Source: Anaerolineae bacterium (lineage in GTDB: Bacteria > Chloroflexota > Anaerolineae > B4-G1 > SLSP01). From it: a stretch of 64,000 nt of DNA. The position numbers and the translations under genes were made by a program. The DNA lies in assembly GCA_034429475.1 (NCBI GenBank), contig DAOUGD010000250.1, positions 21,527 to 85,526 on the forward strand, read 5' to 3'. Positions 5,116 through 60,443 of this stretch are shown here, piece after piece; the stretch's first letter is position 1, and every line of letters begins with the position of its first letter. The notes under the pieces were generated by a model. The model had not been told where the DNA came from, made no database searches, and worked only from the letters and a program-made list of their open reading frames with translations.

Positions 5116-5137
5116 GTCGTTCCGCAAAATCCAATTG

Positions 5138-5180
5138 TGTACTGCGTATTGCTTCCCCCGGCAATACGCAGTACTTTTTT
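5138..5180 (+). terminator. rho-independent terminator after ahcY
   Basis: Perfect 14-bp stem gtactgcgtattgc/gcaatacgcagtac with loop ttcccccg, followed by TTTTTT. Confidence 0.8.
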
Positions 5181-9329: not shown

Positions 9330-9407
9330 ATAAGAAATGGGAAATAAGTAATGAGTAATCAGAGTGATTATTCATTACTCGTTACTCATTACTCGTTACT
9401 CATTTCC
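9330..9407. repeat. heptamer-unit palindromic repeat array (units ACTCRTT / AATGAGT)
   Basis: taagtaatgagtaatcagagtgattattcattactcgttactcattactcgttactcatt: four tandem ACTCRTT heptamers preceded by their reverse complements. Confidence 0.7.
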
Positions 9408-9441
9408 GGTTTCCGATCATCACCTACTGGGGGCAAGAATT

Positions 9442-10296: not shown

Positions 10297-10358
10297 TCTC
10301 AACGGATTAAACGGATTCTAACGGATTAGCTTCCGTTGAATCCGTTCAATCCGTTGAG
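10297..10358. repeat. family-A hairpin repeat element (AACGGATT units)
   Basis: Inverted repeat tctcaacggattaaacggattctaacggatt / aatccgttgaatccgttcaatccgttgag. Confidence 0.85.
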
Positions 10359-11713: not shown

Positions 11714-11763
11714 TCTCAACGGATGGAACGGATTTTCCGTTCAATCCGCTCAATCCGTTGAGT
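11714..11763. repeat. family-A hairpin repeat element
   Basis: tctcaacggatggaacggatt ttccgttcaatccgctcaatccgttgag. Confidence 0.85.
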
Positions 11764-11781: not shown

Positions 11782-12585
11782 ATGAAATTAGGGGCAAATT
11801 CAGTGTTGTTTGGGGCGTTTGAGTTGGAGACGGCCTTCAAGTCGCTGGCGCTGGCCGGGTATGACGGCATTGAACTTTCGGCCATTGACGGGATGAGCGA
11901 GCATCTGTTGCTGGAGCGCTGGCAGGAGCTGGCGCCGCAGATCAAGCAACTGGCGCAGACGTATGGGCTGGCGCTGCTGGCGATGGAGCAGCCCTCGCAA
12001 GACCCGGCGCGGATGGAGACGGCATTTCAGGCGGCGGTCGAGATCGGCATCCCGGTGATCAACTGCGGGCCGGGTGGCAAGGCCGGCGACGAGGCCAGTT
12101 TCCAGCAGTCGGTGGACTCACTCGGCAAGCTCGCGTTGCTGGCGGAGCGGTACGGCGTGACGTTGTGCGTCAAGGCGCACGTCGGCGCGGCGATCTGGAA
12201 CACGCCGACGACGCTGCGGTTGATGGAGGCCGTCAGTTCGCCCGCTTTTGGCATTGATATGGACCCCTCGCACATCTACCGCGCGGGCGAGAACCCGGTG
12301 GAAGCGATTGCCGCCGTCATCTCCCGCGTCAAACACGTCCACATCCGCGATTGCAAGGGCCGCCAGCACGGGCCGGGCGCGCCGGCGGATCAGGCCAACG
12401 GGCGCGGCGACATTGACTTGGTGGGCTACCTCGGCACGCTGCACCAACACGGCTACACCGGCCCGGTGGATTTGGAGATCATCGGGACGAAGGGGCAGGG
12501 CTACACGTTGGAGCAGTGCCTCACCATTGCGGCGGAATCGCGCGGGCACATGCAGGCGTGCTTGCAGGCCTGCGGCGCGCGGTGA
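11782..12585 (+). CDS. sugar phosphate isomerase/epimerase (xylose isomerase-like TIM barrel)
   Basis: Similarity to the AP endonuclease 2 / xylose isomerase-like family. Confidence 0.75.
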   Translation: MKLGANSVLFGAFELETAFKSLALAGYDGIELSAIDGMSEHLLLERWQELAPQIKQLAQTYGLALLAMEQPSQDPARMETAFQAAVEIGIPVINCGPGGKAGDEASFQQSVDSLGKLALLAERYGVTLCVKAHVGAAIWNTPTTLRLMEAVSSPAFGIDMDPSHIYRAGENPVEAIAAVISRVKHVHIRDCKGRQHGPGAPADQANGRGDIDLVGYLGTLHQHGYTGPVDLEIIGTKGQGYTLEQCLTIAAESRGHMQACLQACGAR

Positions 12586-12588
12586 TTC

Positions 12589-12657
12589 AGACGTAAAACG
12601 TAAAACGTGAAACGTGAGGCTTTTACAGATGAAGCCATCACGTTTCACGTTTTATGT
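12589..12657. repeat. family-B hairpin repeat element (ACGTRAA heptamers)
   Basis: acgtaaaacgtaaaacgtgaaacgtgagg...tcacgtttcacgttttatgtttc, lying between convergent genes. Confidence 0.85.
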
Positions 12658-12662
12658 TTCAT

Positions 12663-13256
12663 TCATTCGACAGGCGCGGTGCGCCGGTAGATGCTGTTTT
12701 CACGCGCCAGCAGGCCCGCATCCACGAGGCCGCGCCGCAGGGTCGCCACGTCGTCGTTGAATTCGACCAATACCTGGTTGACTTCGCGCTCGGTGTAGGT
12801 GCGTTCCGGCTCAAATTCCTGGACGATGTGTTCCAGAACGATCATGAATTTCTTGAGCTGCGCCGGAATCGCCTTAAGTCGTCCGTATTTGAAGAAGGTT
12901 TTCAGCACTTTCTGGCGGTAGGCGTCTTCCTCCACCTGGGCCGCGACGCCCGGCTGCGGCATAAAGACCACGTCGCGCAGGGGCTTATCCAACAGCGCGC
13001 CGGACAGGGAGTAGACCTGGTAGTACTGAGTTTTCTCCGCTGTCAGCAGCCCAACCTCGGCCAGCTTGCCCAGGTGATGCGACACCGTCGCCGCGTTCAG
13101 ATTGAGGATCGCGGCCAATTCTTCACCGTGCCGGGGCTTCATTTTCACCAAATTCAAGATCAGCAGGCGCACCGGGTGTCCGAGCGCCTTGAAGAGTTCC
13201 GCCCGCGCTTCGAGATTCTGTTCAGGCGTCAGGGGTTGCGCTATAGCTTCATTCAT
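12663..13256 (-). CDS. ArsR/SmtB-family transcriptional regulator with a C-terminal DUF2087-like domain
   Basis: wHTH LFKALGHPVRLLILNLV. The N-terminal extension of ORF 12663..13610 is low-complexity and looks spurious. The ATG at 13256 is coupled to the upstream small ORF by an ATGAATGAATGA overlap. Confidence 0.7.
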   Translation of the reverse strand: MNEAIAQPLTPEQNLEARAELFKALGHPVRLLILNLVKMKPRHGEELAAILNLNAATVSHHLGKLAEVGLLTAEKTQYYQVYSLSGALLDKPLRDVVFMPQPGVAAQVEEDAYRQKVLKTFFKYGRLKAIPAQLKKFMIVLEHIVQEFEPERTYTEREVNQVLVEFNDDVATLRRGLVDAGLLARENSIYRRTAPVE

Positions 13257-16570: not shown

Positions 16571-19045
16571 ATGAGCAATCCATTGACACTTTGGTATACC
16601 CATCCCGCCGTCCATTGGACGGAAGCCTTGCCCATCGGCAACGGGCGGCTGGGCGCGATGGTGTTCGGCGGCGCGCCCGTCGAGCGGCTGCAATTGAACG
16701 AGGACACGCTCTGGTCGGGCCATCCGAAGGATTGCGATAACCCGGACGCGCTGCCGTATCTGCCGCAGGTGCGGGAGGCGGTCTTTGCCGGGGATTACGT
16801 CCGCGCCGACGAACTGATAAAACACATGCAGGGGCCGTTCAACCAGAGCTATCTGCCGCTTGGGGACTTGATCCTGGATTTCTCAACGGATTTAACGGAT
16901 GGAACGGATTCTGATCCGTTAAATCCGTTGAATCCGTTGAGCTATCGCCGCTCTCTGGATTTGGACACGGCGTTGGCGGAGACGACGTACACGGTGGATG
17001 GCGTCACCTTCACGCGGCAGGTTTTCGCTTCCGCGCCGGACGACGCCATCGTGATACGGCTGGCGTGCGACAAACCGGGCGCGTTGGCCTTCACCGTCGC
17101 CTTGAACAGCCCGCTGCATTTCCACACGACGCCTTTGCCCTCCGGGGCAGCCGCCCAACCGGGTCTGCTGATGACCGGCAAAGCGCCGCAGCACGTAGAC
17201 CCCAGCTACTTGCCGTCTGACAATCCGGTGATCTATGGGTCAACGGATTCAACGGATGGAACGGAACAGAATCCGTTAAAATCCGTTCAATCCGTTGAGG
17301 GAATGACGTTTGCCGCTTTGCTGTCGGCACGTGTGACGGGCGGCGTGGTGACATCGGAGGGCGACCGGCTGCGTGTCGCCGGTGCGGATGAGGCGGTACT
17401 GCTGTTGTGCATGGCGACGAGCTTCAATGGCTTTGACCACTCCCCCGCTTTTGAAGGCAAAGACCCGGTGACGTGCGTCGCCCACACGATGGCGGCGATT
17501 CTCGACAAGCCTTACGCCATGCTGCTACAAGCGCACCTCGATGATTACCAGCCGCTTTTCCGCCGCGTGGAATTGGACCTGGGTTCGCTCGGCAACGAGG
17601 GCTTGCCCACCGACGAGCGCATCCGGCAGTACCACGCCGCTCCCGACCCGGCGCTGGCGAGCCTGCTCTTCCAGTACGGGCGCTACCTGCTCATCGCCAG
17701 CTCCCGGCCGGGGACGCAGCCCGCCAATTTGCAGGGGATTTGGAACGACATGGTGCGCCCGCCGTGGAGCAGCAATTGGACAGTCAACATCAACACGCAG
17801 ATGAACTACTGGCCCGCCGAGGTCGCGAATCTGGTGGATTGTCACCTGCCGCTGTTCGACCTCATCCGCGCCCTGAGCGTCAACGGCGCGAAGACGGCGC
17901 GGATCAACTACGGCTGCCGGGGCTGGTGCAGCCATCACAACGCCGACGTGTGGGCGCAGTCCGCGCCGGTGGGGAACTACGGCGGCGGGCAGCCGATGTG
18001 GGCCAACTTCCCCTTGAGTGGCGCGTGGTTGTGTACGCACCTGTGGGAGCATTACGCCTTCGGCGGCGACGCGGCCTTCCTGCGCGACGTGGCCTATCCG
18101 CTGATGCAAGGCGCGGCGGAGTTCTGCCTGGACTGGCTGATTGAGGACGGCGCAGGCCATCTGGTCACGTGCCCGGCGATCTCCTGCGAGAACGAATTCG
18201 TCACCGAAGACGGCGTGACGGCGCAGACGAGTATGGCGACGACGCAGGATATGGCGATCATCGGGCAGCACCTCGCCAACTGCCTCGCCGCCGCCGGGGT
18301 GTTGGGGATTGAGGACGAGTTCACCGCGCGCGCACGCGCCGCGCTGCCGCGCCTCTACCCTTTCCAGGTGGGGCGCAAGGGCGACTTGCAGGAGTGGGCC
18401 AGGGATTGGGACAGCGCCGACCCGCACCACCGGCACATCTCGCACCTGATGGGGCTGCACCCCTTCGCGCTGATCACCGAGGGGACGCCCGCGCTGTTTG
18501 AGGCGTGCAAACGCTCGCTCGACCTGCGCGGCGACGAGAGCACGGGCTGGTCTATGGCGTGGAAGGTCAACTGCTGGGCGCGGCTCAAGGACGGCGACCG
18601 CGCGTTCAAAGTGCTGTCGCAGCTCTTCACGCCGGTGGACGCCAGCGAGGGGAACTGGCAGCGGGGCGGCGTCTATCCCAACCTGTTCGACGCGCACCCG
18701 CCCTTCCAGATTGACGGCAACTTCGGCGCGACGGCCGGCATCGCGGAGATGTTGGTGCAGAGTCACACGGGCGTCATCGAGCTACTGCCCGCGCTGCCCT
18801 CGGCCTGGCCGAACGGGAGTGTGAAGGGGTTGCGCGCGCGGGGCGGGTTTGAGGTGGACCTGGCGTGGCGGGATGGGAAGGCGACGGAGGCGACGATACG
18901 CTCGTTGTTGGGGAAGGAGTGCCGGGTAGCGGGGGGTAAGCTCAGCATCATCTGTGATGGGAAACAGGTTTTGATACAGCAGGATGGAAATGGCGGCGCA
19001 TTTTCCACCGAGGCAGGGAAAGTCTATCACGTAGCAGTGGGATAA
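16571..19045 (+). CDS. glycoside hydrolase family 95 (alpha-L-fucosidase-like) containing two in-frame repeat-element insertions
   Basis: GH95 N-terminal motifs [20 protein letters not shown] and LPLGDL. Family-A elements at 16881..16942 and 17240..17299 are translated in frame. Confidence 0.9.
16881..16942. repeat. family-A hairpin element embedded in frame in the GH95 CDS
   Basis: tctcaacggatttaacggatggaacggattctgatccgttaaatccgttgaatccgttgagc, encoding [20 protein letters not shown]. Confidence 0.85.
17240..17299. repeat. family-A hairpin element embedded in frame in the GH95 CDS
   Basis: gtcaacggattcaacggatggaacggaacagaatccgttaaaatccgttcaatccgttgag, encoding [20 protein letters not shown]. 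Confidence 0.85.
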
Positions 19046-19100: not shown

Positions 19101-19454
19101 ATGAGTGAGTATGTGGTCACACTTTCACCCCAAACGCATCAGACGTTAGCGCAACTGGCGCAAATGACGCAGCAGACCATCGAACGCCTCATCAACGAGT
19201 TGGCGGCGCAGCCGATGCTCTCTATCGAATTGCGCGCTGGCGTGCAGGGCGGCGAGCCTTGTATCCGTGGGACGCGCATCCCTGTGTGGGTATTGGCGGC
19301 CATGCACAAACAGGGCGATACCGCCGAGGATTTGTTGGAAGCTTACCCGAATCTGAACGCCGTACAAGTCTATGCCGCGTTGAGTTATTACTATGCCCAT
19401 CGCGCCGAGATAGACGCGGTGATTGCGGTACAAAATGACCAGATGGAGAAATAA
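19101..19454 (+). CDS. DUF433 domain protein
   Basis: C-terminal GGEPCIRGTRIPV signature of DUF433. Stop is 2 nt before the next ATG. Confidence 0.7.
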   Translation: MSEYVVTLSPQTHQTLAQLAQMTQQTIERLINELAAQPMLSIELRAGVQGGEPCIRGTRIPVWVLAAMHKQGDTAEDLLEAYPNLNAVQVYAALSYYYAHRAEIDAVIAVQNDQMEK

Positions 19455-19456
19455 AA

Positions 19457-20407
19457 ATGAATCCCAAGATTTTTAGCCAGCATTCAGGTTGTGAACCCAA
19501 TTGGTCTCCAGTGCGGGATAAGATTGTTTTTAGTGATCATAAGGACTATTCTATTTATGTGTTAGATATAGATAGTAATGATACCAAAAAGGTTGCGCAA
19601 GGAATGAATCCGCAGTGGTCTCCAAATGGTTCATTTATTTATTATCAATGGGGGACACAAGTTGGCAGGGTGAAACTTGATGATAATACAAATGAAATCT
19701 TATATGATGGTGACGACAATATTCACTGGGTATCGTTGTCAAGGAAAGGAGAAAAAATCGCATTTACCGACGGTTTAAACCCAGGGAAATTATACGTCAT
19801 TGATATAAATAGTTCAAATTTGATGTGTTTAATGGGTGCTGAAAGCCAATGTGATTTTCTGGGAGGGATAACTTGGTCGCCTGATGGTGAGTGGTTAGCT
19901 TGTCAGGTTAGTCAAGCACACTCAACAAGTAATATAGTTCTTCTTAATGTAAGAACCTTAGAGAAAAAAATAATCTTCGAGAGAGGCTATCAGCCAGCTT
20001 GGAGTCCTGTTGGCAATATGATAGTTTTTCGTGCTCGCTCAGGTAATTTAGGATCGGATGATATTTATCTATATGATTTTATAACTCATAAATTCACTAT
20101 TACTGGACTCAAACAGTCGTTGATACGTATTGAGCATGTCCGGGATACTTTCAAATGGTCACCTGATGGAAAATATACTGTTTTTGAAAGAATAGAAGCT
20201 GGCGGTCGGCTAAACTACTGGATGAAAGGATTGTCACATACAATCTGCTTGTTAAGATTGACAGATCGAAAAATAATACCTTTATTTAAAGGCCGTCAAG
20301 ACGCGCTTTCATCGCCAACTTGGTCGCCAGATAGTAGGAAAGTCGCTATGTGCCTGCACCTTAGTGATATTGGTTTTCCTCTTTGCATAATTGATTTACC
20401 AGAGTAA
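19457..20407 (+). CDS. PD40/TolB-like WD40-type beta-propeller protein on a very AT-rich gene (about 38% GC)
   Basis: Recurrent WSPDG / WSPNG / WSPVG PD40 repeats. Sharp GC drop relative to flanking genes. Confidence 0.7.
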   Translation: MNPKIFSQHSGCEPNWSPVRDKIVFSDHKDYSIYVLDIDSNDTKKVAQGMNPQWSPNGSFIYYQWGTQVGRVKLDDNTNEILYDGDDNIHWVSLSRKGEKIAFTDGLNPGKLYVIDINSSNLMCLMGAESQCDFLGGITWSPDGEWLACQVSQAHSTSNIVLLNVRTLEKKIIFERGYQPAWSPVGNMIVFRARSGNLGSDDIYLYDFITHKFTITGLKQSLIRIEHVRDTFKWSPDGKYTVFERIEAGGRLNYWMKGLSHTICLLRLTDRKIIPLFKGRQDALSSPTWSPDSRKVAMCLHLSDIGFPLCIIDLPE

Positions 20408-21046: not shown

Positions 21047-21098
21047 TTTCACGTAGTGCGTAGTCCGTTTACGGAATACGGAATACGCACTACGGACT
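21047..21098. repeat. heptamer tandem repeat array (NNTACGG units)
   Basis: TAGTGCG TAGTCCG TTTACGG AATACGG AATACGC ACTACGG, immediately upstream of the RBS of the next gene. Confidence 0.7.
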
Positions 21099-24528: not shown

Positions 24529-24600
24529 GGACGCAGGTTTTCGCAGATTCACGCAGATAATTTTTAGAAAATCAGCGTTCATCCGCGTTTATCTGCGTCC
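24529..24600. repeat. family-C hairpin repeat element (ATCTGCGT decamer units)
   Basis: cgcagattcacgcagataat...cgtttatctgcgtcc. Confidence 0.8.
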
Positions 24601-29344: not shown

Positions 29345-29401
29345 AGGGATTAGGGATTGGGGATTAGGGATTAGGCTGTCCCAATCCCCAATCCCCAATC
29401 T
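29345..29401. repeat. family-D hairpin element of GGGGATT/AGGGATT heptamers (STRR1-like CCCCAAT)
   Basis: gggattagggattggggattagggattagg ctgtc ccaatccccaatccccaatc. Confidence 0.85.
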
Positions 29402-29457
29402 CTATTTTCAAGGAGTGATACCGAACCTATGGTGCAGCCCCGATAATGAAAATTTTT

Positions 29458-29518
29458 ACATGGATGGACAGGATGGACAGGATTTTTGGAATCTATCCTG
29501 TGCATCCTGTATATCCAT
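29458..29518. repeat. imperfect hairpin of GGATGGACA units
   Basis: catggatggacaggatggacaggat ... atcctgtgcatcctgtatatccatg. Confidence 0.6.
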
Positions 29519-29539
29519 GTTATTGACAGAGGAGTTATT

Positions 29540-30415: not shown

Positions 30416-30585
30416 TTTTTAAAAAATAGAATTTACGCAAAGAGCGAGATTTTACCGCAGAGTACGCGGAGGTCGCAGAGATTTTATAGGCACTCGGCGT
30501 TCTCAGCGGCCTCTGCGGTAAAAAAAGAGATGATTATGTAAGTCCTGAAAAAATTATCTGCGTCAATCCGCGTGAATCTGCGTCC
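30386..30585. repeat. split family-C element carrying a nested CGCAGAG-type hairpin
   Basis: The left arm ggacgcagataaacgccgatgaacgctgatt (30386..30416) is identical to the left arm at 60345. The right arm ttatctgcgtcaatccgcgtgaatctgcgtcc lies at 30554..30585. Between them is the inner hairpin ttaccgcagag...ctctgcggtaa. Confidence 0.6.
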
Positions 30586-33003: not shown

Positions 33004-33008
33004 ATTTG

Positions 33009-33066
33009 TACGCAGATTCACGCAGATAGTATAAAATCTGCGTGAATCTGCGTTTATCTGCGTCCC
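33009..33066. repeat. family-C hairpin repeat element
   Basis: acgcagattcacgcagata gtataaa atctgcgtgaatctgcgtttatctgcgtcc, with an extra unit at 33097..33107. Confidence 0.85.
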
Positions 33067-33858: not shown

Positions 33859-34252
33859 ATCCTCCCGCCCATGCCCTTTAAGGCGCGCCAACCGGCTGCG
33901 CCCTGCCAAGTGAACGATGAGTGAGCGTAAGATTCTCCATGCATAAAGGTCAGCAAAGGGGAACGTAACCGCGCAACGCGACCACGAAAAACCCTCTTAA
34001 TGGTAGCTTTTGCCGTGTCTGGCGGGCAGAAGCTAAATGATCTTCTATGTGGAACGCACCGGGTAATTCCCGGTGGGCGGTCATTGCATTCCCCCCTCCT
34101 CTGCTGTACAATAATGATGGACTTCTCACCCTTCCCAATTTTTTCCCCTTCTATCGCATTGCGCTGCAACTTGTCTACGCTGTGTCACGCGGGCGCAGAA
34201 GCCCTTACCCATTTACCTTTCCCTATGCCATGTTTTTAATCAAGGAGGAATC

Positions 34253-37200
34253 TATGAGAACTAAACGCTTTACCTTTACTCTGACCACGGGGCTGGGAAG
34301 TTTGCTGCTCCTGGTAACGCTGCTGCTCCTCTCTCCGACCCAGCCCGGTAGCGCCCACGCGGCAGACGTCACCCCTGGCGAGACGGCCCTGGGCGTGCGC
34401 GCTCCCCTCGATCCCGATCCGCCGTTTTCCCCAGCGCGGCTGCTGGGGCCGACCCAGTCGCCGCGGATTTTCGCCCGGTACTACGCGGACGGGCGTAATG
34501 ATGTGTTTGGATTCAACGCCGTTGCCAGCGGCACGGTTCTGATCACCATCACGCATCCTACCGAGGGGATCATTGCAACCGGCAGCACCATCGCCGGCAC
34601 ATGCAATGGCTGCAATCCCACCGATTACCAGCTTGATTTTCCCGATTGGACACTCACGGCTGGGGTCAGCGTGACGGTGGATGCCGGGCCGGGGATGGTC
34701 GAATCGGTCGAGGTGGTTTCCATCACCGGTGATCCCGACGCCGAGACGGACATCGTCATCGGCGACGCCCCGGCGGGAGGCCAGATGAATGCCTTCGTGC
34801 AGCGCCCCGGAAACCAGGCAGACATCAACGACGTGCAGGTGGACGTCAGCGGCGTCTACACACTGGATTTCGCCGCGGTGGGCTGGGATATTTTGCCCGG
34901 CGACGAGTTCCACGTGTACTACCACGCGCCGGGCGGCCACAACGTCGAATCGGTCTTCTGGCTCCCTGCGCCGGTGCTGAGCATCAACAAGTGGCACGTG
35001 AGCGGCTTTGCTCGACCGGGCGGCAAACTCGTGTACGGCATCGGTTACTGGAATGATGGCGGCATGGTCGCAACGGACGTCGTCATTACGGACACGCTGC
35101 CCGTCTCCACCACCTGGGCCGGCGATACGAGCGGCCTGACGCCCGACATCGGCGCGAATGGCGTCATCACCTGGCACATCGGCAGCCTCCCCGATGAGGG
35201 CATCTACGGCAACTGGGGTGTCTTCTTTGTCACGTTGGACGTCGCCGCCGACATGCCGACCGGGGAGGGGGTCATCCCCAGCAATTGCGCTACCATTTCG
35301 ACGAGCACGCCCGGCGATGCCAACCCCGACGACAACACGGCTTGCAGCGGCAGCGTGGATGTGTGGAACAGCGACGTGGGCCTTAATGTGGACAAATGGC
35401 CCAGCCCCGGCGATCCCACGCCGGGCCAGGAGTTCGATTACACCCTCCGCTGGTGCAGCGACTACGGGGCGAATTTCGGGCCGGTCTGGTTGACCGACAC
35501 GCTGCCCGTCTCGACGACGGTGGTCGGTTGGAGCACCGACGAGTGGTGGGGACAAATGCTGTGGACCGAAGTCGTCACCACCGGCGGACAGTTCGCGCTC
35601 TACGCGCCGGGTCTGCCGGGCGATTGGTGCGAACACATCACCCTGCGCCTGCGCGTTGACCCCGCTGCGCCGGAAGAGCTGCTGCTGAGCAACCACGTCA
35701 TTGTGACGACACCCGGCGACGCGCAGCCCGACAACAACGAACGCCTCAACGAAGATGCGCGCACGAGCAATCCGCGCCTGGATTTACACCTGGACAAAAG
35801 CCTGAACAGCGGGCGGCTCGTCCCCGGCGGATGGATCAATTACTTCTTGTGGTATGGCAATCAGGGGAACATGGCGGCGCCGGTCGTGATCACAGAGACC
35901 GTCCCCACCGGTCTCACCTTCGACTCTGCCTGGTGGGGCGGCGGGCAGCCGGGTGCGGACGAGCCGCTGCCCGCGCCGGTAGTGGTGGGCGATCAACTTG
36001 TGTGGGACCTGAGCGAGCTGCCGGTGAACGGGAGCCGTTGGTTCCACATCCAGATGGCTATCACGGATACCCTCCAGGCCGGCGACCTCATCACGAACTG
36101 CGCCGACCTCAGCATCAACGACGGGGAACGCACCCCGGAGGACAACCACAGGTGCTACACGGTGAAGCTCAACTCCCCCGGCCCCAACCTGCGCGTGACC
36201 AAAGAATCCTGGTGGAACGGCAACAGGCAGTTGGGCTACCGCATCAGCTTCTTCAACCTGGGGGATGAAACTGTCTCCAACGTCTGGATCACCGACACGT
36301 TGCCGACCGGCGTGGCCTGGGAAGGGTGGTATAACCTGAACTTTGATTCAAATCGCCTGGCGGAGGAGGCGCTCCCCGGCGACGTGCTGGCCTGGCGCTT
36401 CACGGAGCTGTATCCGGGCGACAACGGCAACCTGGAGTTCAATACGAACCTGGACGAACCCGGTGCGCCGGTACGCTGGTACACCAACACGGTGGAGATC
36501 ACCGTGCCGGACGGCGACGTCAACCCCGCCGACAACGCTGGTGAGACCGTGGACTTCAGCGGCGGCGAGGTGGAATGGGTGGACGTGGACGTCTACCGCA
36601 CCCGCATCTGGGGCTGCGCGCCGCAAGGCCCTGTTACTGTCACCACGGCGGCGGCAGAAGTGATCTTCGGCAATGACTGGAACGAGAATAACTTCCCCGA
36701 TACCTTCGACCCCGGCGACGTCGTCACTGTGACGGCCGGCGCGGGACGGTATCCGGTGGTCATTACCATTCCCGATCCCTTCACCGGGCAAATTGACTCC
36801 GTCGCCGACACGGTTTGGGGGCAGATTGACGCGCTGGATCACGCACAGGTCGAGGTGGACTTGTGGAACATCGGTTCGCAATGGACGGAAACCGATGCCC
36901 AGGGCCATTACAGCGTCACTTACCCCGACATCCCGCACGGTGCGCAAGGCGACGTAGGATATTGGACCGAGATTGCTTACGCCAGCGTCGGCTTCCACCA
37001 CCGGCTGGTCAACCTGGACCTGACCGTCACCGTGGATTACAGCGACAATGGCGTAGACAGCACCTATGAACGCGGGCACACCGGCTGGGTCACTGTCACC
37101 AGCAACCTTACCACAGAAATCAAGGCGACCGTCGAGGTCACCACGGAACAGTGGCCCTCGTGGAACGGCGGCAGCGGCTTCTCGACCCATCATCACCCCT

Positions 37201-40200
37201 GGGCCCCGTCGCAGCCCGACATTCAACCGGGCGATTGGGTCTACGCCGTGTTGGACAACGGCTATAGCGCCGCCGTGCAGGTAGGAACCATCAACGCTGC
37301 GGTGGATGCGGACAACGATGTGGTATCCGGCGCCCTCGATGTGCCGTGGTTCTCCGAAGGCTTGCCGGTCAGGTGCGAAATTCACGAGGAAAATGCGCCG
37401 GGCATCGAAATTCAGAACGTCGATCCCCAGGGCGGCGCGTTCTTCTGCGACTTCGGCGGCATGTGGGACATTCAGCCCGGTCAGAACGTGGCGGTGCGCT
37501 ACGCCGAACCGGACGGCAACCAGGTGATGGCCCGCCCCGCCAATCCCGCGCCGCGCCTGCGCGTGGAAAAATGGCTGGAAAGCGGCAATCCCGGCGAGAA
37601 TAGCAATGCAACTTTCTACGTGCAATACCGTAACGAGGGCGACGACGCGGCCGAGAATGTCGTCATCACCGACACGCTGCAAGGGATGACCTACATCACC
37701 GACACCTCCGGCTTCACGCACACCGGCAGCGGCGACCAGATCGTCCTGGACTTGGGGACGGTCGCGCCGGGTGAGTGGATTTACTTCTACGTCTTTGCCG
37801 AGGTCACGGCGGGGGCGGGCGAGCGCGTCACCAACACCGTCCAGATCGCCACCAGCGATCCCTACGATCAGGGCGACCCGTCAGAGAAATGGCGCGAGTG
37901 GAGCGGCGACGTGCAGCCCAACGATACGACCCTTAACATCGGCAAGCAGTCGTGGACCGGCGACCCTGCGGCCGGCTACGCCATGATCTTCCAACTCAGC
38001 TCGTGCAACAACGGCGGCACGGGCAGCCTGGCGGTAACGATCACCGATACGCTGCACCCCTCCATGACGCTCCAAACCTGGTGGAGCGACAATCCCGGAT
38101 GGCGCGAAGTCAGCCGTGGCGCGCAAGAACTGGTTCTCGCCAAACCCACGCTGCCGGGCTGGCGTTGCGAGAACGTCTATGTCCGCGCTACGGTAGATGC
38201 GGAGGCCGAGTCGGGGATGTTCATCTCCAACACAGCCACAATCTACGCGGCCAACGATCTCAGCACCGGCGACGATGAAGCCGGGTGGGGCGGCCACGTC
38301 GCCGCGCCGCGTCGCAATCTGCTGGTTGACAAGTATTGGAACTGGGGGCAACTGACCCCCGGCGGCGAATTGCGCTACAACCTCAACTACAACAACACCG
38401 GCAACGTCCCGGTGGGCGCGTTCCGCATCACCGACACGCTGCCGGTGAGCACGACCTTCGTCAGCGCGTGGCAGGATAATCACCCCTTCACGCCGACTCT
38501 CATTGATGACGGTATGGTGGTGTGGGAGTTTGCCGGGCTGGATAACGGCTACGCTAACGGGTTCGAGGTAATCCTGAGGGTGGATGCTGACGCTATCCCC
38601 GGTACGCTGCTGGTCAACACCGCCGAGATTTCCTGTCTGCCGGGCGAAGAGACTTGCGACGACAACGTCAGAAGTTGGACCGAGACACTCCTCAACCACG
38701 GCCCGAACCTGCGCGTGACCAAGTGGGGCGACTGGCACGGCGACCGGCCGGGGCACGCCCGGTATGAATTCCATGTGGAGAACGTGGGGGACGTTGCTGT
38801 CGCGCAGGCTGTCATCACGGATACCTACCCCATGGTAATGACATTGGAAGGGGGGATTGACGTAGATTGGGGCCGCGTGGCGGATTATACGGAGAATGCT
38901 GCGGAACACTGGCTCCAACTCACGCTTAACGATGTAGGCCCCGGCTACCGGCTGGATATCCGTTTCAATACCACGATGGAGGAACCGGTGGCCGAGGGAC
39001 TGATCCTCACCAACACGGTTGCTGTCGCGCCGGTCGCGGGCGATACCAACCCCGCCGACGACAGTACGGATTACGTCCTCACCACCGGCCCCGATCTCTA
39101 CGTCGAGAAGACGCTGGTCGGCGGCGCGTTGCTGCCCGGCGAACTGGTCACCTTCAGCCTGCGCTTCGGCAACGACCAGCCGGGTCACACCTGGTGGTGG
39201 AATATGGAGGGTAACACGCGGCTCACGGACATTCTGCCGGCGGGCCTGACGTACGTTTCCGCGCACCTGCGTTACTGCGGCGGCTCTGAGTGGTGCGCGC
39301 GTCCCCCTGATGTGCGACTCGATCCGATCCAGGTGTGGTGGTTTGATCCCCTCAACGCCGGCGCGTGGAATGAGCTTTACCTGACCGCCCGCATCACGGA
39401 CACAGCTACCGGGCGGGAGACTTTCACCAACACGGCTCAAATTGCCAGCAACCAACCTGCCGACGATACCGACCCCGACTCCACCAACAACTACGCGACG
39501 CTCACGCTGCCCATTGACCTGCCGTACTTTGAGGTCAGCAAGGACTACGAGAGTACAACCGTCGCCGGAACGCCCATCACCTACACCCTGACGGTGACGA
39601 ACAGCGGCAATCGCGTGGGCACAGGCGTCATCCTCAGCGACACCATTCCACAGGGCTTGGGAAACCCCGGCGGCGGGACGCTTGAGTTTGGCGCGGCTCG
39701 CTGGCTTTTCGCCATGATCGGCGTGGACGAGACAGCGACGGCGGAATTGACCGGCCTCCTGCCCTGCGCCGGCAGCGTCGTCAACGCTGACTACCGCGTC
39801 GTCACCAGCGACCAGGGCGTGGGCAGCGCCGTGGGCGCGCCGGTCGTCCTGAACGTTCTCGCCCCCACCCTCGTTGCCGACCTGGAGCAGAGCGCCGCCA
39901 GCGCCGTGGTCAGCGCGACGTTGTCTTTCACCGGCAGCGCCGCCACGAATGGCCCGGCGGTCGCGGCGTGGGCCTGGGACTTCGGCGACGACAGCGCGCC
40001 GGCCATGACGCCCAACGCCGTCCACACCTACGTCACCGACGGCGTCTTCCCTGTCACCCTCACCGTCACCGACACGTGCGGCTACACCGCGACGGCCACC
40101 AGCGCGGTCACGGTCACGCCGCCAGCGCTCGTGGCGAGCTTCATCCAGAGCGCGGCGCAGGTCAGGCCGGGTGACACGGTCACGTTCACCAGCACCAGCA

Positions 40201-40433
40201 CAACCGATGCGCCGCCTATCGTCGCGTGGGCCTGGGACTTCAGCGACGACGCTACGTTGAAATTGGGGGCGATCGTGACGCATACCTATCTCACGGAGGG
40301 GACTTTCACCGTTACCCTGACGGTCAGCGATAGCCTGGGCTACCACGCTGTCGCGGCCTCGGTCGTCACGGTCAGTCAGGATCAGGTCTTCGTCTACCTG
40401 CCGCTGGTGTTGCGGGATTATCCGCCGCAATAA
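34253..40433 (+). CDS. giant secreted cell-surface protein: signal peptide, about 10 DUF11 (TDTLP) repeat domains, two PKD domains and a YLPLVLR C-terminal tail
   Basis: RBS AAGGAGGA 7 nt upstream of the ATG at 34253. Signal peptide MRTKRFTFTLTTGLGSLLLLVTLLLLSPTQPGSAHA. Repeated [IV]TDTLP motifs. WAWDFGDDS appears twice, the PKD signature. Ends ...VFVYLPLVLRDYPPQ. Confidence 0.85.
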
Positions 40434-48551: not shown

Positions 48552-48634
48552 AGTAGGCGCGACATCCCTGTCGCGGGAAGGCGGACACGCGGAAAGGATT
48601 CCGCGCCTACAAGGTCTATTCCGAGAGAGGTTCA

Positions 48635-50361: not shown

Positions 50362-50703
50362 TTACGCCACCGCAAACCCCGTCAACGGGCGGACATCGGG
50401 CGGCTGGAAGGCCAGCACAATATCCTCTTTGGGGATGCCGGCTGCCAGCAGGTCCGGTGTGATGCCGTGTTCCAGCCAATCCTCTTCAATCCACAACTTG
50501 TCATCCCGCAACCGAACATACACCGTTGTGCCGCGAATTCGCCGCTGTTGGTCCCAGCCGGTCGAAACCAACATATAGTGGTCATGCTCCGTGTCGGCGA
50601 CCACTTCGGTTTCCTTGCCCGGCCTAGCAGAACGGTTAATCACGTCGGCGTATTGCGTAAGAATTTGCCGGATGATGTGCCGATAATGAGTTAATTTGTC
50701 CAT
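50362..50703 (-). CDS. xisI: XisI-family protein
   Basis: Characteristic XisI sequence, e.g. YRHIIRQILTQYA and HYMLVSTGWD. Confidence 0.8.
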   Translation of the reverse strand: MDKLTHYRHIIRQILTQYADVINRSARPGKETEVVADTEHDHYMLVSTGWDQQRRIRGTTVYVRLRDDKLWIEEDWLEHGITPDLLAAGIPKEDIVLAFQPPDVRPLTGFAVA

Positions 50704-51107
50704 ACAACCACCTCCTCTTGCGCCAGATTAACCACAATTAAGGCCATCTTATTCCGTTGCACCAGCAATTGAATAGCTTTGCGGGCGAAGACGTTTTCGT
50801 AGACGGGTAGACTAACCGCCAGATATAAATGGCGATCTGGTTCAACGGCTTCCAACAGGCTTTGATAGAGCACATATTGCCCCAAGGCTTCTTCCATTGC
50901 GTGGATGACCGAAGGCGCTATAAAACTTTTGATTTCCACCGCAATTTTCTGCCCCGCTCGTTCTGCTGCGATCACCCGTTCCGCGCCCAGGTCAACAAAA
51001 ACCGTCGTATCTTCATACTCCAACGTGTAAGGATCGTGGGTGATCGTCCACCCGTCTTTGATCAAAGCATTTCTGACAGCCGTATGAATGATGTCTTTTG
51101 CGGGCAT
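50691..51107 (-). CDS. xisH: XisH-family protein (PD-(D/E)xK nuclease-like)
   Basis: XisH signature MPAKDIIHTAVRNALIKDGWTIT. Overlaps xisI. Confidence 0.8.
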   Translation of the reverse strand: MPAKDIIHTAVRNALIKDGWTITHDPYTLEYEDTTVFVDLGAERVIAAERAGQKIAVEIKSFIAPSVIHAMEEALGQYVLYQSLLEAVEPDRHLYLAVSLPVYENVFARKAIQLLVQRNKMALIVVNLAQEEVVVWTN

Positions 51108-51190: not shown

Positions 51191-51217
51191 CAGCGCGATT
51201 TGGAAATCGCGGCTACA
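51191..51217. repeat. short hairpin cgcgatttggaaatcgcggctaca (family I), 3' of uvrA
   Basis: A near-identical copy lies at 55297..55322. Confidence 0.6.
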
Positions 51218-54125
51218 ACACCCCCCGCAAATACCCCCCCGTATACGAGTCTTGCACTTCCGCCACCGCCTCCGGCGTCCCCTGCGCCACCAGCCGCCCG
51301 CCGGCGTCGCCGCCGTCCGGCCCCAGGTCTATGATCCAGTCCGCAGTCTTGATCACGTCCAGGTGATGCTCGATCACCAGGACGGTGTGGCCCGCGTCCA
51401 CCAGGCGGTTCAGGCTGAGCAGCAGCTTCTCGATGTCGGCGGCGTGCAGGCCCGTCGTCGGCTCGTCGAGGATGTAGAGGTTGTGCGCGCCGCGCTTCAG
51501 CTTCCCCAGCTCGTGCGCCAGCTTGACGCGCTGCGCTTCCCCGCCGGAGAGCTTCGTCGCCGGGTGGCCCAGCTTGAGGTAGCCCAGGCCCAGGTCGCGC
51601 AGCGTGCGCAGTTTGTGGACGACGCTGCGCGGGACGTCTCGCGTCTCCTCGAAGAAAGCCACCGCTTCCTCAATGGACAGGTCCAGCACGTCGGCGATGC
51701 TCTTGCCGCGGTACGTCACTTCCAACGTCTCGGCGTTGTAGCGCGCGCCCTTGCACACCGGGCATAGCGTCTCCACGTCCGCCATAAACTGCAAGTGCGT
51801 GTTCAGGTAGCCCTCACCCGCGCACTCCTCGCAGTGGCCTTCCTTCACGTTGAAGCTGAACCGCGAGGCGGTGTAGCCTCGCGCCCGCGCCTCCTCCGTC
51901 TCCGCGAACAGGCGCCGGATCGCGTCGTACACACCGATGTACGTCGCCGGGTTCGAGCGCGGCGTGCGCCCGATGGGCGACTGGTCAATGTCTATGATGT
52001 CGGTCACATACTCCACCCCTTCCACGGCGCGATGCTTGCCCGGCAAGGTACGGTGGTCATGCAGGGTGGCGTAGAGCTTCTTGTAGAGGATCTCGTGGAT
52101 GAGGCTGCTCTTGCCGCTGCCGCTCACGCCCGTCACGCAGATGAAGAGGCCCAACGGGAACGTCACGTCGAGGTCGCGCAGGTTGTTCTCCCGCGCGCCG
52201 CGGATCACCAGATTGTGCCCGTTGGGATGGCGGCGCATCTCCGGCAGGGGGATGCGCGCGGCCCCATCGAGGTATTGCCCCGTGAGCGAGGCCGGATCGT
52301 GCAGCACCATCTCCACCGGGCCGCACGTCACCACCTCGCCGCCGTGTTCGCCCGGCCCCGGCCCCATCTCGATGAGCGTGTCGGCGGCGCGGATGATCGC
52401 CTCGTCGTGCTCCACCACCACCACACTGTTGCCCAGGTCGCGCAGGCGGTGCAGCGTCTCCACCATCTTGCGCGTGTCGTAGGGATGCAGGCCGATGGTC
52501 GGCTCGTCGAGCACGTACAACATCCCCATCAGGTCGGAGCCAATCTGCGTGGAGAGGCGGATGCGCTGCGACTCGCCGCCGGAGAGCGTGTTCGACGGGC
52601 GGTTGAGCGTCAGGTAGTCCACGCCGATGTCGAGCAGCAGGCGCACGCGGCGGACGATCTCGCGGACGATCTGCGTGCCGGCCTCGCGCTTCTTCTCCGG
52701 GATGGGGACGGCTTCCAGGAAGGCGATGAGGTCGGCAAAGGCCATGTCGCCCAGCTCGTGGATGTCCTTCCCGGCGATGGTGACGAGGAAGCGCTGCGGT
52801 TTGAGTCGCTTGCCGCCGCAGTCGGGGCAGGTGTGCTCCACCATCACCTTCTTGAGCCACTCGTCCATCCAGGTGTTGAAGCGGCCCTCTTTGCGGTAGC
52901 GGCGGTAGTTGCGCTCGATAAAATTGATGATGCCCCCAAACGACATCTCGCGCCCTTCCCACCGCTCGCCGGTCTTCGCGCCGGGCGGGATCACCACCGG
53001 GAACTTCGCGCCCTTTGTCCCGTAAAAGAGGAGGTCCACAATCGCCGGCGGAAGGTCTTTGAACGGCGTGTCGAGGCTGAAGCCATAGGCCTGCGCCAGG
53101 CTATAGGCCATCCGCCCCGACCACGAATTCTTGTCGGGATTGAGCGCCTCCTTCGCCAACGCACCGCCCGCGATACTGCGGTGCGGGTCGAGGATGAGCA
53201 GCTCCGGGTGCACACTGCGATACGTCCCCAGCCCCAGGCACGTCACGCACGAGCTAGAGCCAGACGGCAAGTTGAAGCTGAAATACTGGGCTTCCATCTC
53301 GCCCTTGACCATCTGATGCTCCGGGCACGCCAGTTCTACGGGACGCAGATTTTCGCGGATGAACGCAGATTTTTCTGTATTTATCTGCGTTACTCTGCGT
53401 TCATCTGCGTCCAAAATATGGATGCTGATGAAGCCCTCCCCCAGCAGCAGACCGTGTTCGAGGGAGGCGAGGATCTGCTTGTCTTTGCCCGGATGGATGG
53501 CGAAGCGGTCTACGATGACATCAATCTGGTACGTCGTGTCCTCGTCCAGGTCAACGGGTTCGCTGAAGTCTACGAAGCGCCCGTCAATGTAGGCGCGGCG
53601 GTAGCCCCGCGTGCGCACCTCGTCGAAGAGATAGGCGTAGTCCTCGCCGTAGATCTTGAAGACGGGCGCGCGCACCTCCACTTCCGTCCCGGCGGGCAGC
53701 GTCAGCAGGTGGGCGAGCATCTGCTCCGGGCTGCGCGTGGGGACTTCGGCGCCGCAGTACGGGCAGTGCGCCACGCCGATGGTCGCGTAGAGCATCCGCA
53801 GGTAGTCGTAGATGTCGGTCATCGTGCCCACCGTCGAGCGCGGGTTGCGTACGCCGGTCTTCTGCTCGATGGAGATGACGGGCGACAGCCCATAGACAAA
53901 GTCCACGTTGGGCTTCTTGAGCTGCGCGATGTACTTCTTCGCAAACGTGGACATAGACTCCAGGAAGCGCCGCTGCCCCTCGGCGTAGACCGTGTCAAAC
54001 GCCAACGACGACTTCCCCGACCCGCTCACCCCGGTGATCACTACCAGTTGGTTCCGCGGAATCTCTACCGTGATGTTCTTCAAGTTGTGTTCTTTTGCGC
54101 CTTGTACGGTTATCGTGTCTCGCAT
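51213..54125 (-). CDS. uvrA: excinuclease ABC subunit A (canonical class I) with an embedded repeat element
   Basis: Two ABC modules, zinc fingers and the UvrB-binding domain. A family-C element at 53342..53412 is translated in frame as [22 protein letters not shown]. Confidence 0.95.
53342..53412. repeat. family-C hairpin element embedded in frame in uvrA
   Basis: gacgcagattttcgcggatgaacgcagattttt...ttatctgcgttactctgcgttcatctgcgtcc. Confidence 0.85.
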
Positions 54126-54141: not shown

Positions 54142-54209
54142 GTTTTGGGTTATGGGTTGTGGGTTTAGGGTGCATACCACCCACAACCCATAACCCTGAA
54201 CCCACAACC
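54142..54209. repeat. family-F hairpin (GTTNTGG heptamers) between the NTase gene and uvrA
   Basis: gttttgggttatgggttgtgggtttaggg tgcatacc acccacaacccataaccctgaacccacaacc. Confidence 0.8.
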
Positions 54210-55837: not shown

Positions 55838-55862
55838 TCACCGCCGGCGCAATCTGTTGATT

Positions 55863-55915
55863 AAAACGTAAAACGTGAAACGTAAGGCTGTTACGTTTCA
55901 CGTTTTACGTTTTAT
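55863..55915. repeat. family-B hairpin repeat element
   Basis: aaaacgtaaaacgtgaaacgtaagg ctg ttacgtttcacgttttacgtttt. Confidence 0.85.
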
Positions 55916-56089
55916 AAGATGACTTGTCACGGAACTGTGGTATACTCCGTAGACTTCACAGTAGTGCTATACCTCACTCACTTCGCAATTGCGCGCACGT
56001 TAACAACTCAATAGAACCCCTTTGCTTCGTTGGGCCGGGTCGGGCTTGCCCACCTGGGCAGGTCTTCTCACATAAAAAGGAGAACGCCT

Positions 56090-56733: not shown

Positions 56734-56810
56734 GGTGATTAGTGATCAGGTATCAGGGATTAGGATAAGCTTCCCTGAGCTGATCCTTGATCCCTTATCA
56801 CTCATCATTG
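56734..56810. repeat. family-G hairpin of TGATNAG-type heptamers
   Basis: gtgattagtgatcaggtatcagggattaggataagc / ttccctgagctgatccttgatcccttatcactcatcattg. Confidence 0.7.
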
Positions 56811-60344: not shown

Positions 60345-60416
60345 AGAAAGATTAGGACGCAGATAAACGCCGATGAACGCTGATTAAAAAAGATTATCTG
60401 CGTGAATCCGCGAAAA
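60345..60416. repeat. family-C hairpin repeat element
   Basis: ggacgcagataaacgccgatgaacgctgatt aaaaaag attatctgcgtgaatccgcgaaaatctgcgtcc. Confidence 0.85.
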
Positions 60417-60443
60417 TCTGCGTCCTGATGGCGTTTTCAAAAT

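Follow-up and report, generated by a model that had tools for sequence, protein, structure and literature searches.

In an uncultured bacterium of the Anaerolineae, two loops of a glycoside hydrolase family 95 (GH95) protein are encoded by DNA hairpins of a kind that otherwise occupies the spacers between genes. The hairpins lie in a stretch of 64,000 nt (contig DAOUGD010000250.1 of assembly GCA_034429475.1, positions 21,527-85,526 of the forward strand), hereafter termed the window, and they are built from ~9-nt units with the core AACGGAT. We think it likely that these segments are copies of a dispersed, nonautonomous hairpin repeat that has colonized coding loops of the gene, much as Rickettsia palindromic elements (RPEs) and repetitive extragenic palindromic (REP) sequences do. 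An earlier note on this DNA had reported that the element occurs twice inside the GH95 open reading frame (ORF), and its coordinates prove to be right within one base. The analysis described below confirms that observation and supports the interpretation that was placed on it.

The gene, its two insertions, and the intergenic members of the same family are the following.

16571-19045, plus strand: GH95 alpha-L-fucosidase-family gene, 824 aa (ORF, Pfam domains of homologs, PDB 2RDY, and AlphaFold2 (AF2) model)
16882-16941, plus strand: copy A (site 1), 60 nt, residues ~105-124, CTCAACGGATTTAACGGATGGAACGGAT-tctg-ATCCGTTAAATCCGTTGAATCCGTTGAG
17240-17299, plus strand: copy B (site 2), 60 nt, residues 224-242, TCAACGGATTCAACGGATGGAACGGAacagAATCCGTTAAAATCCGTTCAATCCGTTGAG
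10298-10358, unstranded: intergenic AACGGAT-family hairpin in the spacer between parB and a major facilitator superfamily (MFS) gene, fold -40.4 kcal/mol
11715-11762, unstranded: intergenic AACGGAT-family hairpin with two units per arm, 7 nt past the MFS stop codon
58743-58805, unstranded: intergenic AACGGAT-family hairpin downstream of an MFS gene (sequence and fold)

One hairpin family between and within genes

Copies A and B each consist of three AACGGAT-type units ~9 nt apart, a loop of 4-6 nt, and three inverted units. The arms of copy A are 33 nt long and 85% complementary, and its RNA fold of -42.9 kcal/mol (z -10.6) was not equaled in stability by any of 200 shuffled sequences. Copy B folds with -32.1 kcal/mol (z -5.7), again with none of 200 shuffles as stable, and the in-gene copies are as stable as the intergenic ones. 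Both are free of stop codons and in frame within the 824-aa ORF, so that the reading frame is unbroken, as had been claimed.

The AACGGAT motif occurs 26 times in the window, compared with 7.66 +/- 2.88 expected, and none of 100 shuffles reaches this count. This excess bears out the proposal that the in-gene and intergenic hairpins belong to one family. Five family copies are present in the 64 kb, two of them genic and three intergenic, which is a copy pattern of the RPE type. A search of the whole window against Rfam at gathering thresholds, and of positions 16700-17500 at E<=1, matched no family. Because it yielded only sub-threshold look-alikes of miRNA precursors, no known RNA family applies.

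The host gene and its extra loops

Homologs of the window GH95 protein carry PF14498, PF22124, and PF21307, which is the three-domain GH95 architecture. Its best database relatives are annotated GH95 proteins from metagenome-assembled genomes of Anaerolineae, the nearest being 89% identical. PDB entry 2RDY matches the protein with E=1e-251 across residues 5-819, and the gaps in this alignment fall exactly on the two segments (10 residues at site 1 and 14 residues at site 2). An AF2 model built on 115 homologs has a mean predicted local distance difference test score (pLDDT) of 89.7 and a predicted template modeling score of 0.93. Foldseek superimposes it on 2RDY with template modeling (TM) scores of 0.92/0.96 and a root-mean-square deviation of 2.1 A, and the fold tolerates both inserts. 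The values of pLDDT drop below 50 at residues 112-117, 227-232, and 235-240, which form coil between flanking beta strands.

Residues that are invariant in the 115 homologs are kept in the window protein, including N406, N408, E540, and D715, which we take to be the equivalents of the catalytic residues of AfcA. Because the ORF is full length, the invariant residues are kept, and the model matches 2RDY, the gene is intact and not a pseudogene, the latter being one of the outcomes that the earlier note had said would overturn its reading. Both segments are predicted to form extra loops in the N-terminal beta-sandwich domain. The suggestion that they are lineage-specific loop insertions holds as well: they coincide with the gaps against 2RDY and with the low-pLDDT coil, and they are restricted to a clade of GH95 proteins from Anaerolineae that have at least 77% identity with the window protein. 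The expected length of about 20 residues does not hold as a net gain for both sites: the protein gained ~11-12 residues at site 1, where an ancestral loop of 8-9 residues was replaced, and 18 residues at site 2.

Filled and empty sites in orthologous genes

The histories of the two sites, which decide the matter, were followed in the DNA of eleven orthologous GH95 genes from independent assemblies, aligned codon by codon. Site 2 is empty in L008, L009, L010, and L246, which read TAC GGC GAG GAA AGC ATG (Y-G-E-E-G/S-M). This empty state resembles that of more distant GH95 proteins and shows no precursor repeat. In the window gene (WIN) and in L001, L003, L005, L006, L007, and L247, an AACGGAT hairpin fills the site at the same nucleotide position, and L005 is missing exactly one 9-nt unit. 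In the closest relative, L001, the peptide (STDFNGWDSVESV) differs from that of the window because the AACGGAT units sit in another register. What is inherited at site 2 is the DNA and not the peptide. A second outcome that had been named as fatal to the interpretation was that orthologs share the peptide on unrelated DNA. Those that share the peptide share the DNA units too, and L001 shares the DNA without the peptide.

Site 1 has had a more varied fate. An intact hairpin is present in WIN and L001, and a degenerate one in L003. In L005, L007, and L247 there is the right arm only, joined to an unrelated small palindrome, GCGCCGGATTGTGATCCGGCGC, which is found alone at this position in L006 and L008. 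A 33-nt relic, TCAACGAATTTCACGGAAGAAAACCTGTCGAC, remains in L246, and L010 carries a different element that is related to the window hairpin at 48553-48610. In L009 there is no element, and the loop is an ordinary one of 9 residues. Judged from these alleles, the insertion at site 1 is old, and in later history it decayed, lost one half, or had other sequence written over it.

A parallel exists outside the gene. In the window, the parB-MFS spacer holds the AACGGAT hairpin at 10298-10358, versus a GGGATT-family hairpin (1319-1379) in L001, with flanks that are identical up to the stop codon in two genomes whose GH95 proteins are ~89% identical. This replacement of one family by another mirrors the replacement seen at site 1. 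L001 and the window also have several intergenic hairpins in common, and the one at 11715-11762 is conserved in L001 at 2749-2807. The GH95 insertions are old and common to orthologs, and are not particular to the window genome. Where site 2 is empty, the relatives show few tandem-unit hairpins or none in the 5-17 kb of sequence around the gene, compared with ~14-16 in the 64 kb of the window.

In a neighbor-joining tree of the proteins, computed with the insertion columns removed, WIN pairs with the L001 protein (P0001), and the sister group of this pair is (P0004, ((P0012-14), (P0010 + seven others))). Only the first and the last of these groups contain filled site-2 alleles, and the empty allele of the L008 protein (P0011) is nested inside the group of P0010 and seven others. 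Around site 2, L008 is a recombinant, or mosaic: it is nearer there to L009 (0.83-0.85) than it is to the sisters that it has genome-wide (0.64-0.76). A single ancestral insertion at site 2 followed by precise excisions was considered and ruled out, given that empty alleles keep the ancestral G-E-E/Q-G and that L008 is recombinant. The pattern of filled and empty alleles therefore needs one of three histories, namely insertion twice at one nucleotide, a transferred tract of very short length, or a long-lived polymorphism combined with recombination.

Two observations on other members of the GH95 family can be added. P0001 (L001 10001-13000) is called as a protein of 999 aa, with a divergent C terminus and a 175-aa tail unlike all other homologs; the cause may be a frameshift, or a fusion of ORFs, close to the 3' end. 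The distant Chloroflexi GH95 proteins P0022 and P0026 have repeat-like in-frame insertions elsewhere (alignment columns 250-300, 450-480, and 729-768), for example EHPERSETQSKGERSETQSKGERSGEPFRHGVEGRIPADR and ...SDFSRRGPRRTTEVVTTN..., and their sequences suggest the same process with other repeat families.

A third in-frame hairpin and further families

The GH95 gene is not alone in the window in hosting a hairpin. A search for long hairpins with internal periodicity revealed a third in-frame copy, this one from the ACGCAGAT family, within uvrA.

51213-54125, minus strand: uvrA, 970 aa, host of the third insertion (full-length match to UvrA in PDB, E=0)
53341-53412, minus strand: in-frame hairpin of the ACGCAGAT family inside uvrA, with a translation of 24 residues (fold, gap in 9GXK)
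33004-33059, unstranded: intergenic hairpin, belonging with the uvrA copy to the ACGCAGAT family (hairpin scan, motif count)
60351-60429, unstranded: intergenic ACGCAGAT-family hairpin with termini GGACGCAGAT...ATCTGCGTCC as in the uvrA copy (hairpin scan)
5133-5180, 9330-9417, 12583-12665, 21052-21094, 24551-24598, 29346-29409, 29456-29522, 30450-30523, 33004-33059, 54142-54208, 55857-55919, 56735-56801, and 60351-60429, unstranded: further intergenic tandem-unit hairpins with 7-10-nt units, the two ACGCAGAT copies just given included

The uvrA hairpin has a fold of -36.8 kcal/mol (z -8.5) and corresponds to a gap in the alignment with the UvrA structure 9GXK. Its insertion is found only in the window protein and in an ortholog of 92% identity, and an ortholog of 80% identity keeps a decayed left arm. 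A database protein, P0121, is 100% identical to the window UvrA. The motif ACGCAGAT occurs 23 times in the window versus 2.07 expected, and the family comprises one genic and at least three intergenic copies.

Altogether, the window contains ~14-16 tandem-unit hairpins from at least eight unit families, with an arm periodicity of 7, 9, or 10 nt. These families include AACGGAT, ACGCAGAT, AAACGTR, GGGATTN, GGGTTNT, GGATGGACA, and GTAATGA (the units written out being AACGGATnn, ACGCAGATnn, GGGATTn, AAACGTr, and others). By this count, tandem-unit hairpins appear to be a genome-wide habit of the lineage.

Occurrence beyond the window

In a scan of a genome collection, members of the Chloroflexota, filamentous Cyanobacteria, and Bacteroidota were found to carry AACGGAT arrays and hairpins. 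Of the 22 hairpins in this sample, not one lies in a long ORF. A second scan yielded 131 AACGGAT arrays from metagenomes, and the ORFs that span them were searched for Pfam domains. About ten credible in-frame copies in Pfam-supported genes emerged from it. Full hairpins are in frame in an ARMT1-like domain and in a pyrF-pyrE linker. Arrays of one arm, 26-27 nt long, are in frame in SelA, GH31, GH2, GH106, RHS, and NACHT proteins and in a polyketide synthase linker. Such one-arm arrays, and likewise gains and losses of units, are neutral for the frame because three 9-nt units make 27 nt.

Two side observations concern these wider occurrences. Exact, isolated copies of the site-2 element's right arm, AAAAATCCGTTAAAATCCGTTCAATCCGTTGAC, turn up at unrelated loci in the metagenome contigs L160, L161, and L231, one of them inside a GH2 gene and another just upstream of a pfkB start codon. 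In the cyanobacterial contigs L026, L055, L094, and L102 (Tychonema, Coleofasciculus, and others), one-sided AACGGAT arrays stand in long predicted ORFs and translate as (V)TD repeats.

Borders of the element

Element borders were analyzed in 59 copies of the AACGGAT family, whose modal core is 59 nt, TCAACGG...CCGTTGA. The termini conform to (C/G)TCAACGG...CCGTTGA(G/C), the palindrome extends at its borders by 1-2 nt only, and A-rich flanks to the left are matched by T-rich flanks to the right. These flanks give intergenic copies the look of bidirectional terminator-like hairpins, and it is from their T-rich tails that a putative role as terminator or attenuator is read. None of the intergenic hairpins was flagged by a simple terminator scan, a failure that bulges in their stems probably explain. 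One-arm arrays occur in the family alongside full hairpins.

Proposed colonization of coding loops and its alternatives

The proposal that we favor, colonization by a dispersed hairpin repeat, can be set out as a series of steps. A repeat of ~59-61 nt, in which three ~9-nt AACGGAT units and three inverted units enclose a short loop, has its usual home in the short intergenic spacers of this Anaerolineae lineage. Copies of it, whole or half, would have entered GH95 at two positions that encode loops in the N-terminal beta-sandwich domain, and would have survived because the frame was kept, no stop codon was introduced, and the loops tolerate added residues. The mRNA would be read through the hairpin, and the protein would gain two extra disordered loops whose sequence is set by the DNA repeat and not by protein function, and whose effect on the enzyme may be nearly neutral. 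Once colonized, a loop stays unstable, subject to frame-keeping gain or loss of 9-nt units, to deletion of an arm, and to overwriting by other palindromes. The data show membership in the family, the in-frame state, filled and empty sites, the position in loops, the turnover, and the further cases in uvrA and other genes; translation of the copies, near-neutrality for the enzyme, and the manner of copying are inferred.

Several results weigh against this proposal. One gain on the protein tree does not fit the pattern of filled and empty alleles at site 2, and translation of the inserts is a prediction. Target-site duplications were not found in the 59 family copies, 46 of which have no abutting direct repeat. 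Pfam scans of ~40 window proteins detected no Y1/RAYT (REP-associated tyrosine transposase), DDE, or other transposase, and the gene tables of related loci (~200 kb) list no transposase or RAYT. A copying mechanism is unsupported because no such domain was found. As target-site duplications are lacking, classical cut-and-paste transposition is less likely than a route based on recombination or one of the REP/RAYT type. The element at site 2 is, moreover, conserved in a way that a passenger sequence would not be expected to be. Third codon positions are variable at 4 of 19 within the element versus 449 of 771 in the rest of the gene (Fisher p=0.0016), and the element forms an island of 0.84-0.94 identity amid a stretch of 0.5-0.75 that is among the fastest-evolving of the gene. 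As a lead, these figures suggest that the site-2 element is not evolving as a neutral passenger.

Other measures of the site-2 element point the same way. Compared with the filled alleles of the distant clade, the window gene has a nucleotide identity of 0.91-0.94 within the element versus 0.79-0.80 gene-wide. First and second codon positions vary at similar rates in the element and in the rest of the gene, and variation within the element falls on codon positions 1-2, in the spacers of the units. Six sequences (WIN, L003, L005, L006, L007, and L247), with proteins ~78% identical to that of the window, have one and the same right arm, AATCCGTTAAAATCCGTTCAATCCGTTGA, and the hairpin fold is preserved in all filled orthologs. 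This silent-site pattern, a lead from a small sample of 19 codons in related sequences, would fit constraint or homogenization at the level of DNA or RNA, and would not fit peptide selection or neutral decay.

Such data are among the grounds for a different explanation, in which the in-gene hairpins are under selection as nucleic acids and the peptide is a by-product. The hairpin might be a signal for mRNA processing, stability, or translational pausing, or an array to which a protein could bind by recognizing AACGGAT units at 9-nt spacing. In its favor are the silent sites of site 2, conserved beyond the rest of the gene, the fold preserved in every filled ortholog, the right arm that is identical in six sequences and recurs at unrelated loci, and the presence of AACGGAT arrays in three phyla. 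Nevertheless, we regard this explanation as unlikely. Close relatives do without the site-2 element, and the site-1 element decays, is halved, and gets replaced. Spacer bases of the two arms show no sign of covariation in 26 three-unit hairpins, with a complementarity of 0.61 against 0.60 for shuffled partners. Gene conversion from other copies in the genome, or repeated insertion, would yield the same silent-site pattern, and the sample is small.

A related and broader idea, which we hold to be similarly doubtful, is that tandem-unit hairpins of Chloroflexota, filamentous Cyanobacteria, and Bacteroidota form a cross-phylum class of constrained nucleic-acid elements, which a dedicated machinery would write and keep uniform or a conserved binding protein would read. 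If that were so, in-gene copies would be maintained at the DNA or RNA level. The conservation of silent sites, the use of one nucleotide position by two lineages, and the exchange of one family for another at the same spot would then be signatures of the machinery, and not of random transposition and decay.

It is far less probable that the loops are adaptations of the protein, for instance acidic, Asp/Thr-rich surface loops for binding metal or substrate, with the likeness to a repeat being secondary. The peptides do contain much D, T, and N, and many orthologs have kept them in frame. However, the L001 peptide differs even though its DNA units are the same, and variation in codon positions 1-2 with conservation of third positions is the reverse of what protein constraint produces. 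AF2 predicts no structure for the loops, and there are relatives that lack them.

Replication slippage in place, within a low-complexity loop that resembles the intergenic repeat by coincidence, is less probable still. Changes in unit number do occur, such as the 9 nt missing from L005 and the two or three units of intergenic copies. Against slippage, the termini ((C)TCAACGG...CCGTTGA(G)) and the units match at least 59 copies elsewhere, the empty sites have no precursor repeat, and two families have entered two genes of one window. Finally, nothing was found in favor of a pseudogene or of assembly artifacts beyond the aberrant C-terminal extension of the closest ortholog, P0001, and the intact ORF, the conserved GH95 residues, and the recurrence of site-1 and site-2 insertions in mutually independent JGI, ENA, and NCBI assemblies allow us to set this last alternative aside.

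Relationship to known repeats

Colonization of genes by in-frame palindromes is textbook knowledge for Rickettsia. RPEs were the first such insertions to be described (Ogata et al. 2000, 2002, per PMC10969869), and reviews list further cases of in-frame palindromic insertion (PMC3184786, PMC10969869). The elements reported here share with RPEs a dispersed palindrome that is both intergenic and in frame in unrelated functional genes, and an added peptide that is compatible with the fold. They differ in that RPEs are ~100-150 bp long, lack tandem subunits, and reside in Rickettsia, whereas the present elements, from free-living Anaerolineae, are ~60 nt long with three units of ~9 nt in each arm. 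Additional points of difference are the half elements of 26-27 nt in genes and the reuse of one loop by different elements. Size (~60 nt) and host therefore place the elements outside the RPE family, a separation made by description and not by consensus alignment.

REP sequences of the GTAG/CGTC type are known within ORFs of several phyla, with uvrA among the host genes (Di Nocera et al. 2013, PMC3733652), and REP doublets forming hairpins (REPINs) have been described as well (PMC3116915). Like the elements of the window, REPs and REPINs are short extragenic palindromes without target-site duplication that sometimes enter ORFs, notably uvrA, and they exist as singlets and inverted doublets, to which the present one-arm arrays and full hairpins can be likened. 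Unlike them, the 59 copies carry no GTAG/CGTC tag, have arms that are tandem arrays instead of a single GC-rich stem, and are accompanied by no visible RAYT gene in the proteins and loci scanned.

[quoted passage not shown] MITEs have terminal inverted repeats around a core and produce target-site duplications, whereas here the entire element is a palindrome and no duplication is found. By analogy, the lack of duplications and the occurrence of singlets alongside inverted doublets resemble REP/REPIN biology more closely than that of MITEs.

A further likeness is to short tandemly repeated repetitive (STRR) sequences. The heptamers of STRR1-3 are the published units of heterocystous cyanobacteria, in which STRRs have also been reported inside the RNase P RNA gene. 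The units found here appear to differ from those STRR units, and the host belongs to the Chloroflexota. Heptamer repeats of the TAACTGA type are distributed among Beggiatoaceae, Cyanobacteria, and Bacteroidetes, with a few copies inside ORFs, in a report that does not mention Chloroflexota (MacGregor 2015, PMC4679880). STRR and TAACTGA repeats and the present elements have in common intergenic arrays of 7-10-nt units, many families per genome, occasional copies in ORFs, and a similar spread of phyla, given the AACGGAT arrays in filamentous Cyanobacteria and Bacteroidota. Those repeats are mostly direct arrays, whereas the typical form here is an inverted pair that makes a long hairpin.

The earlier note had held that this RPE-like behavior was undescribed for the lineage. 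For Anaerolineae or Chloroflexota, we found no report either of the elements themselves or of their insertion in frame, which is absence of evidence only and comes from a literature search that left subscription journals outside its scope. In-frame insertion is not confined to Rickettsia: what is new is the host phylum and the type of repeat, in-frame insertion of REPs having already been published for other phyla.

Other features of the window

A low-GC island (37-39% versus ~60-69% around it) lies directly downstream from the GH95 gene at 19400-20400. It holds an ORF for a PD40 beta-propeller protein (19457-20407), and a DUF433 ORF is situated at 19101-19454. The island is missing from the syntenic relative L001 and looks recently acquired. 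Near uvrA, an XisH-family ORF (PF08814, E=1e-56) and a small partner ORF adjoin one another on the minus strand at 50362-51107, a pair best known from cyanobacteria. A second, shorter UvrA-like ABC protein with a UvrA DNA-binding domain is encoded on the minus strand at 61768-63972, ~8 kb from the canonical uvrA. A giant surface-type protein of 2128 aa with DUF11 and PKD repeats is encoded at 34047-40433.

Implications

If the insertions are what we propose, in-frame colonization by selfish palindromes extends to free-living Chloroflexota and to hairpins whose arms are tandem arrays. A single loop of the GH95 enzyme would display the life cycle of such an element, from the intact copy through loss of a 9-nt unit, deletion of an arm, and overwriting by other palindromes to mere relics. 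The process would offer a concrete route by which the surface loops of enzymes can lengthen and diversify. For annotation, it may account for odd low-complexity loops (STD/TD/NPL/SV repeats) and for length variation in proteins of Anaerolineae, and such loops should not be taken for functional motifs. The conservation of silent sites, together with the lack of any known signature of mobilization, bears on how STRR-like repeats spread, a question that has stood since these repeats were described in cyanobacteria.

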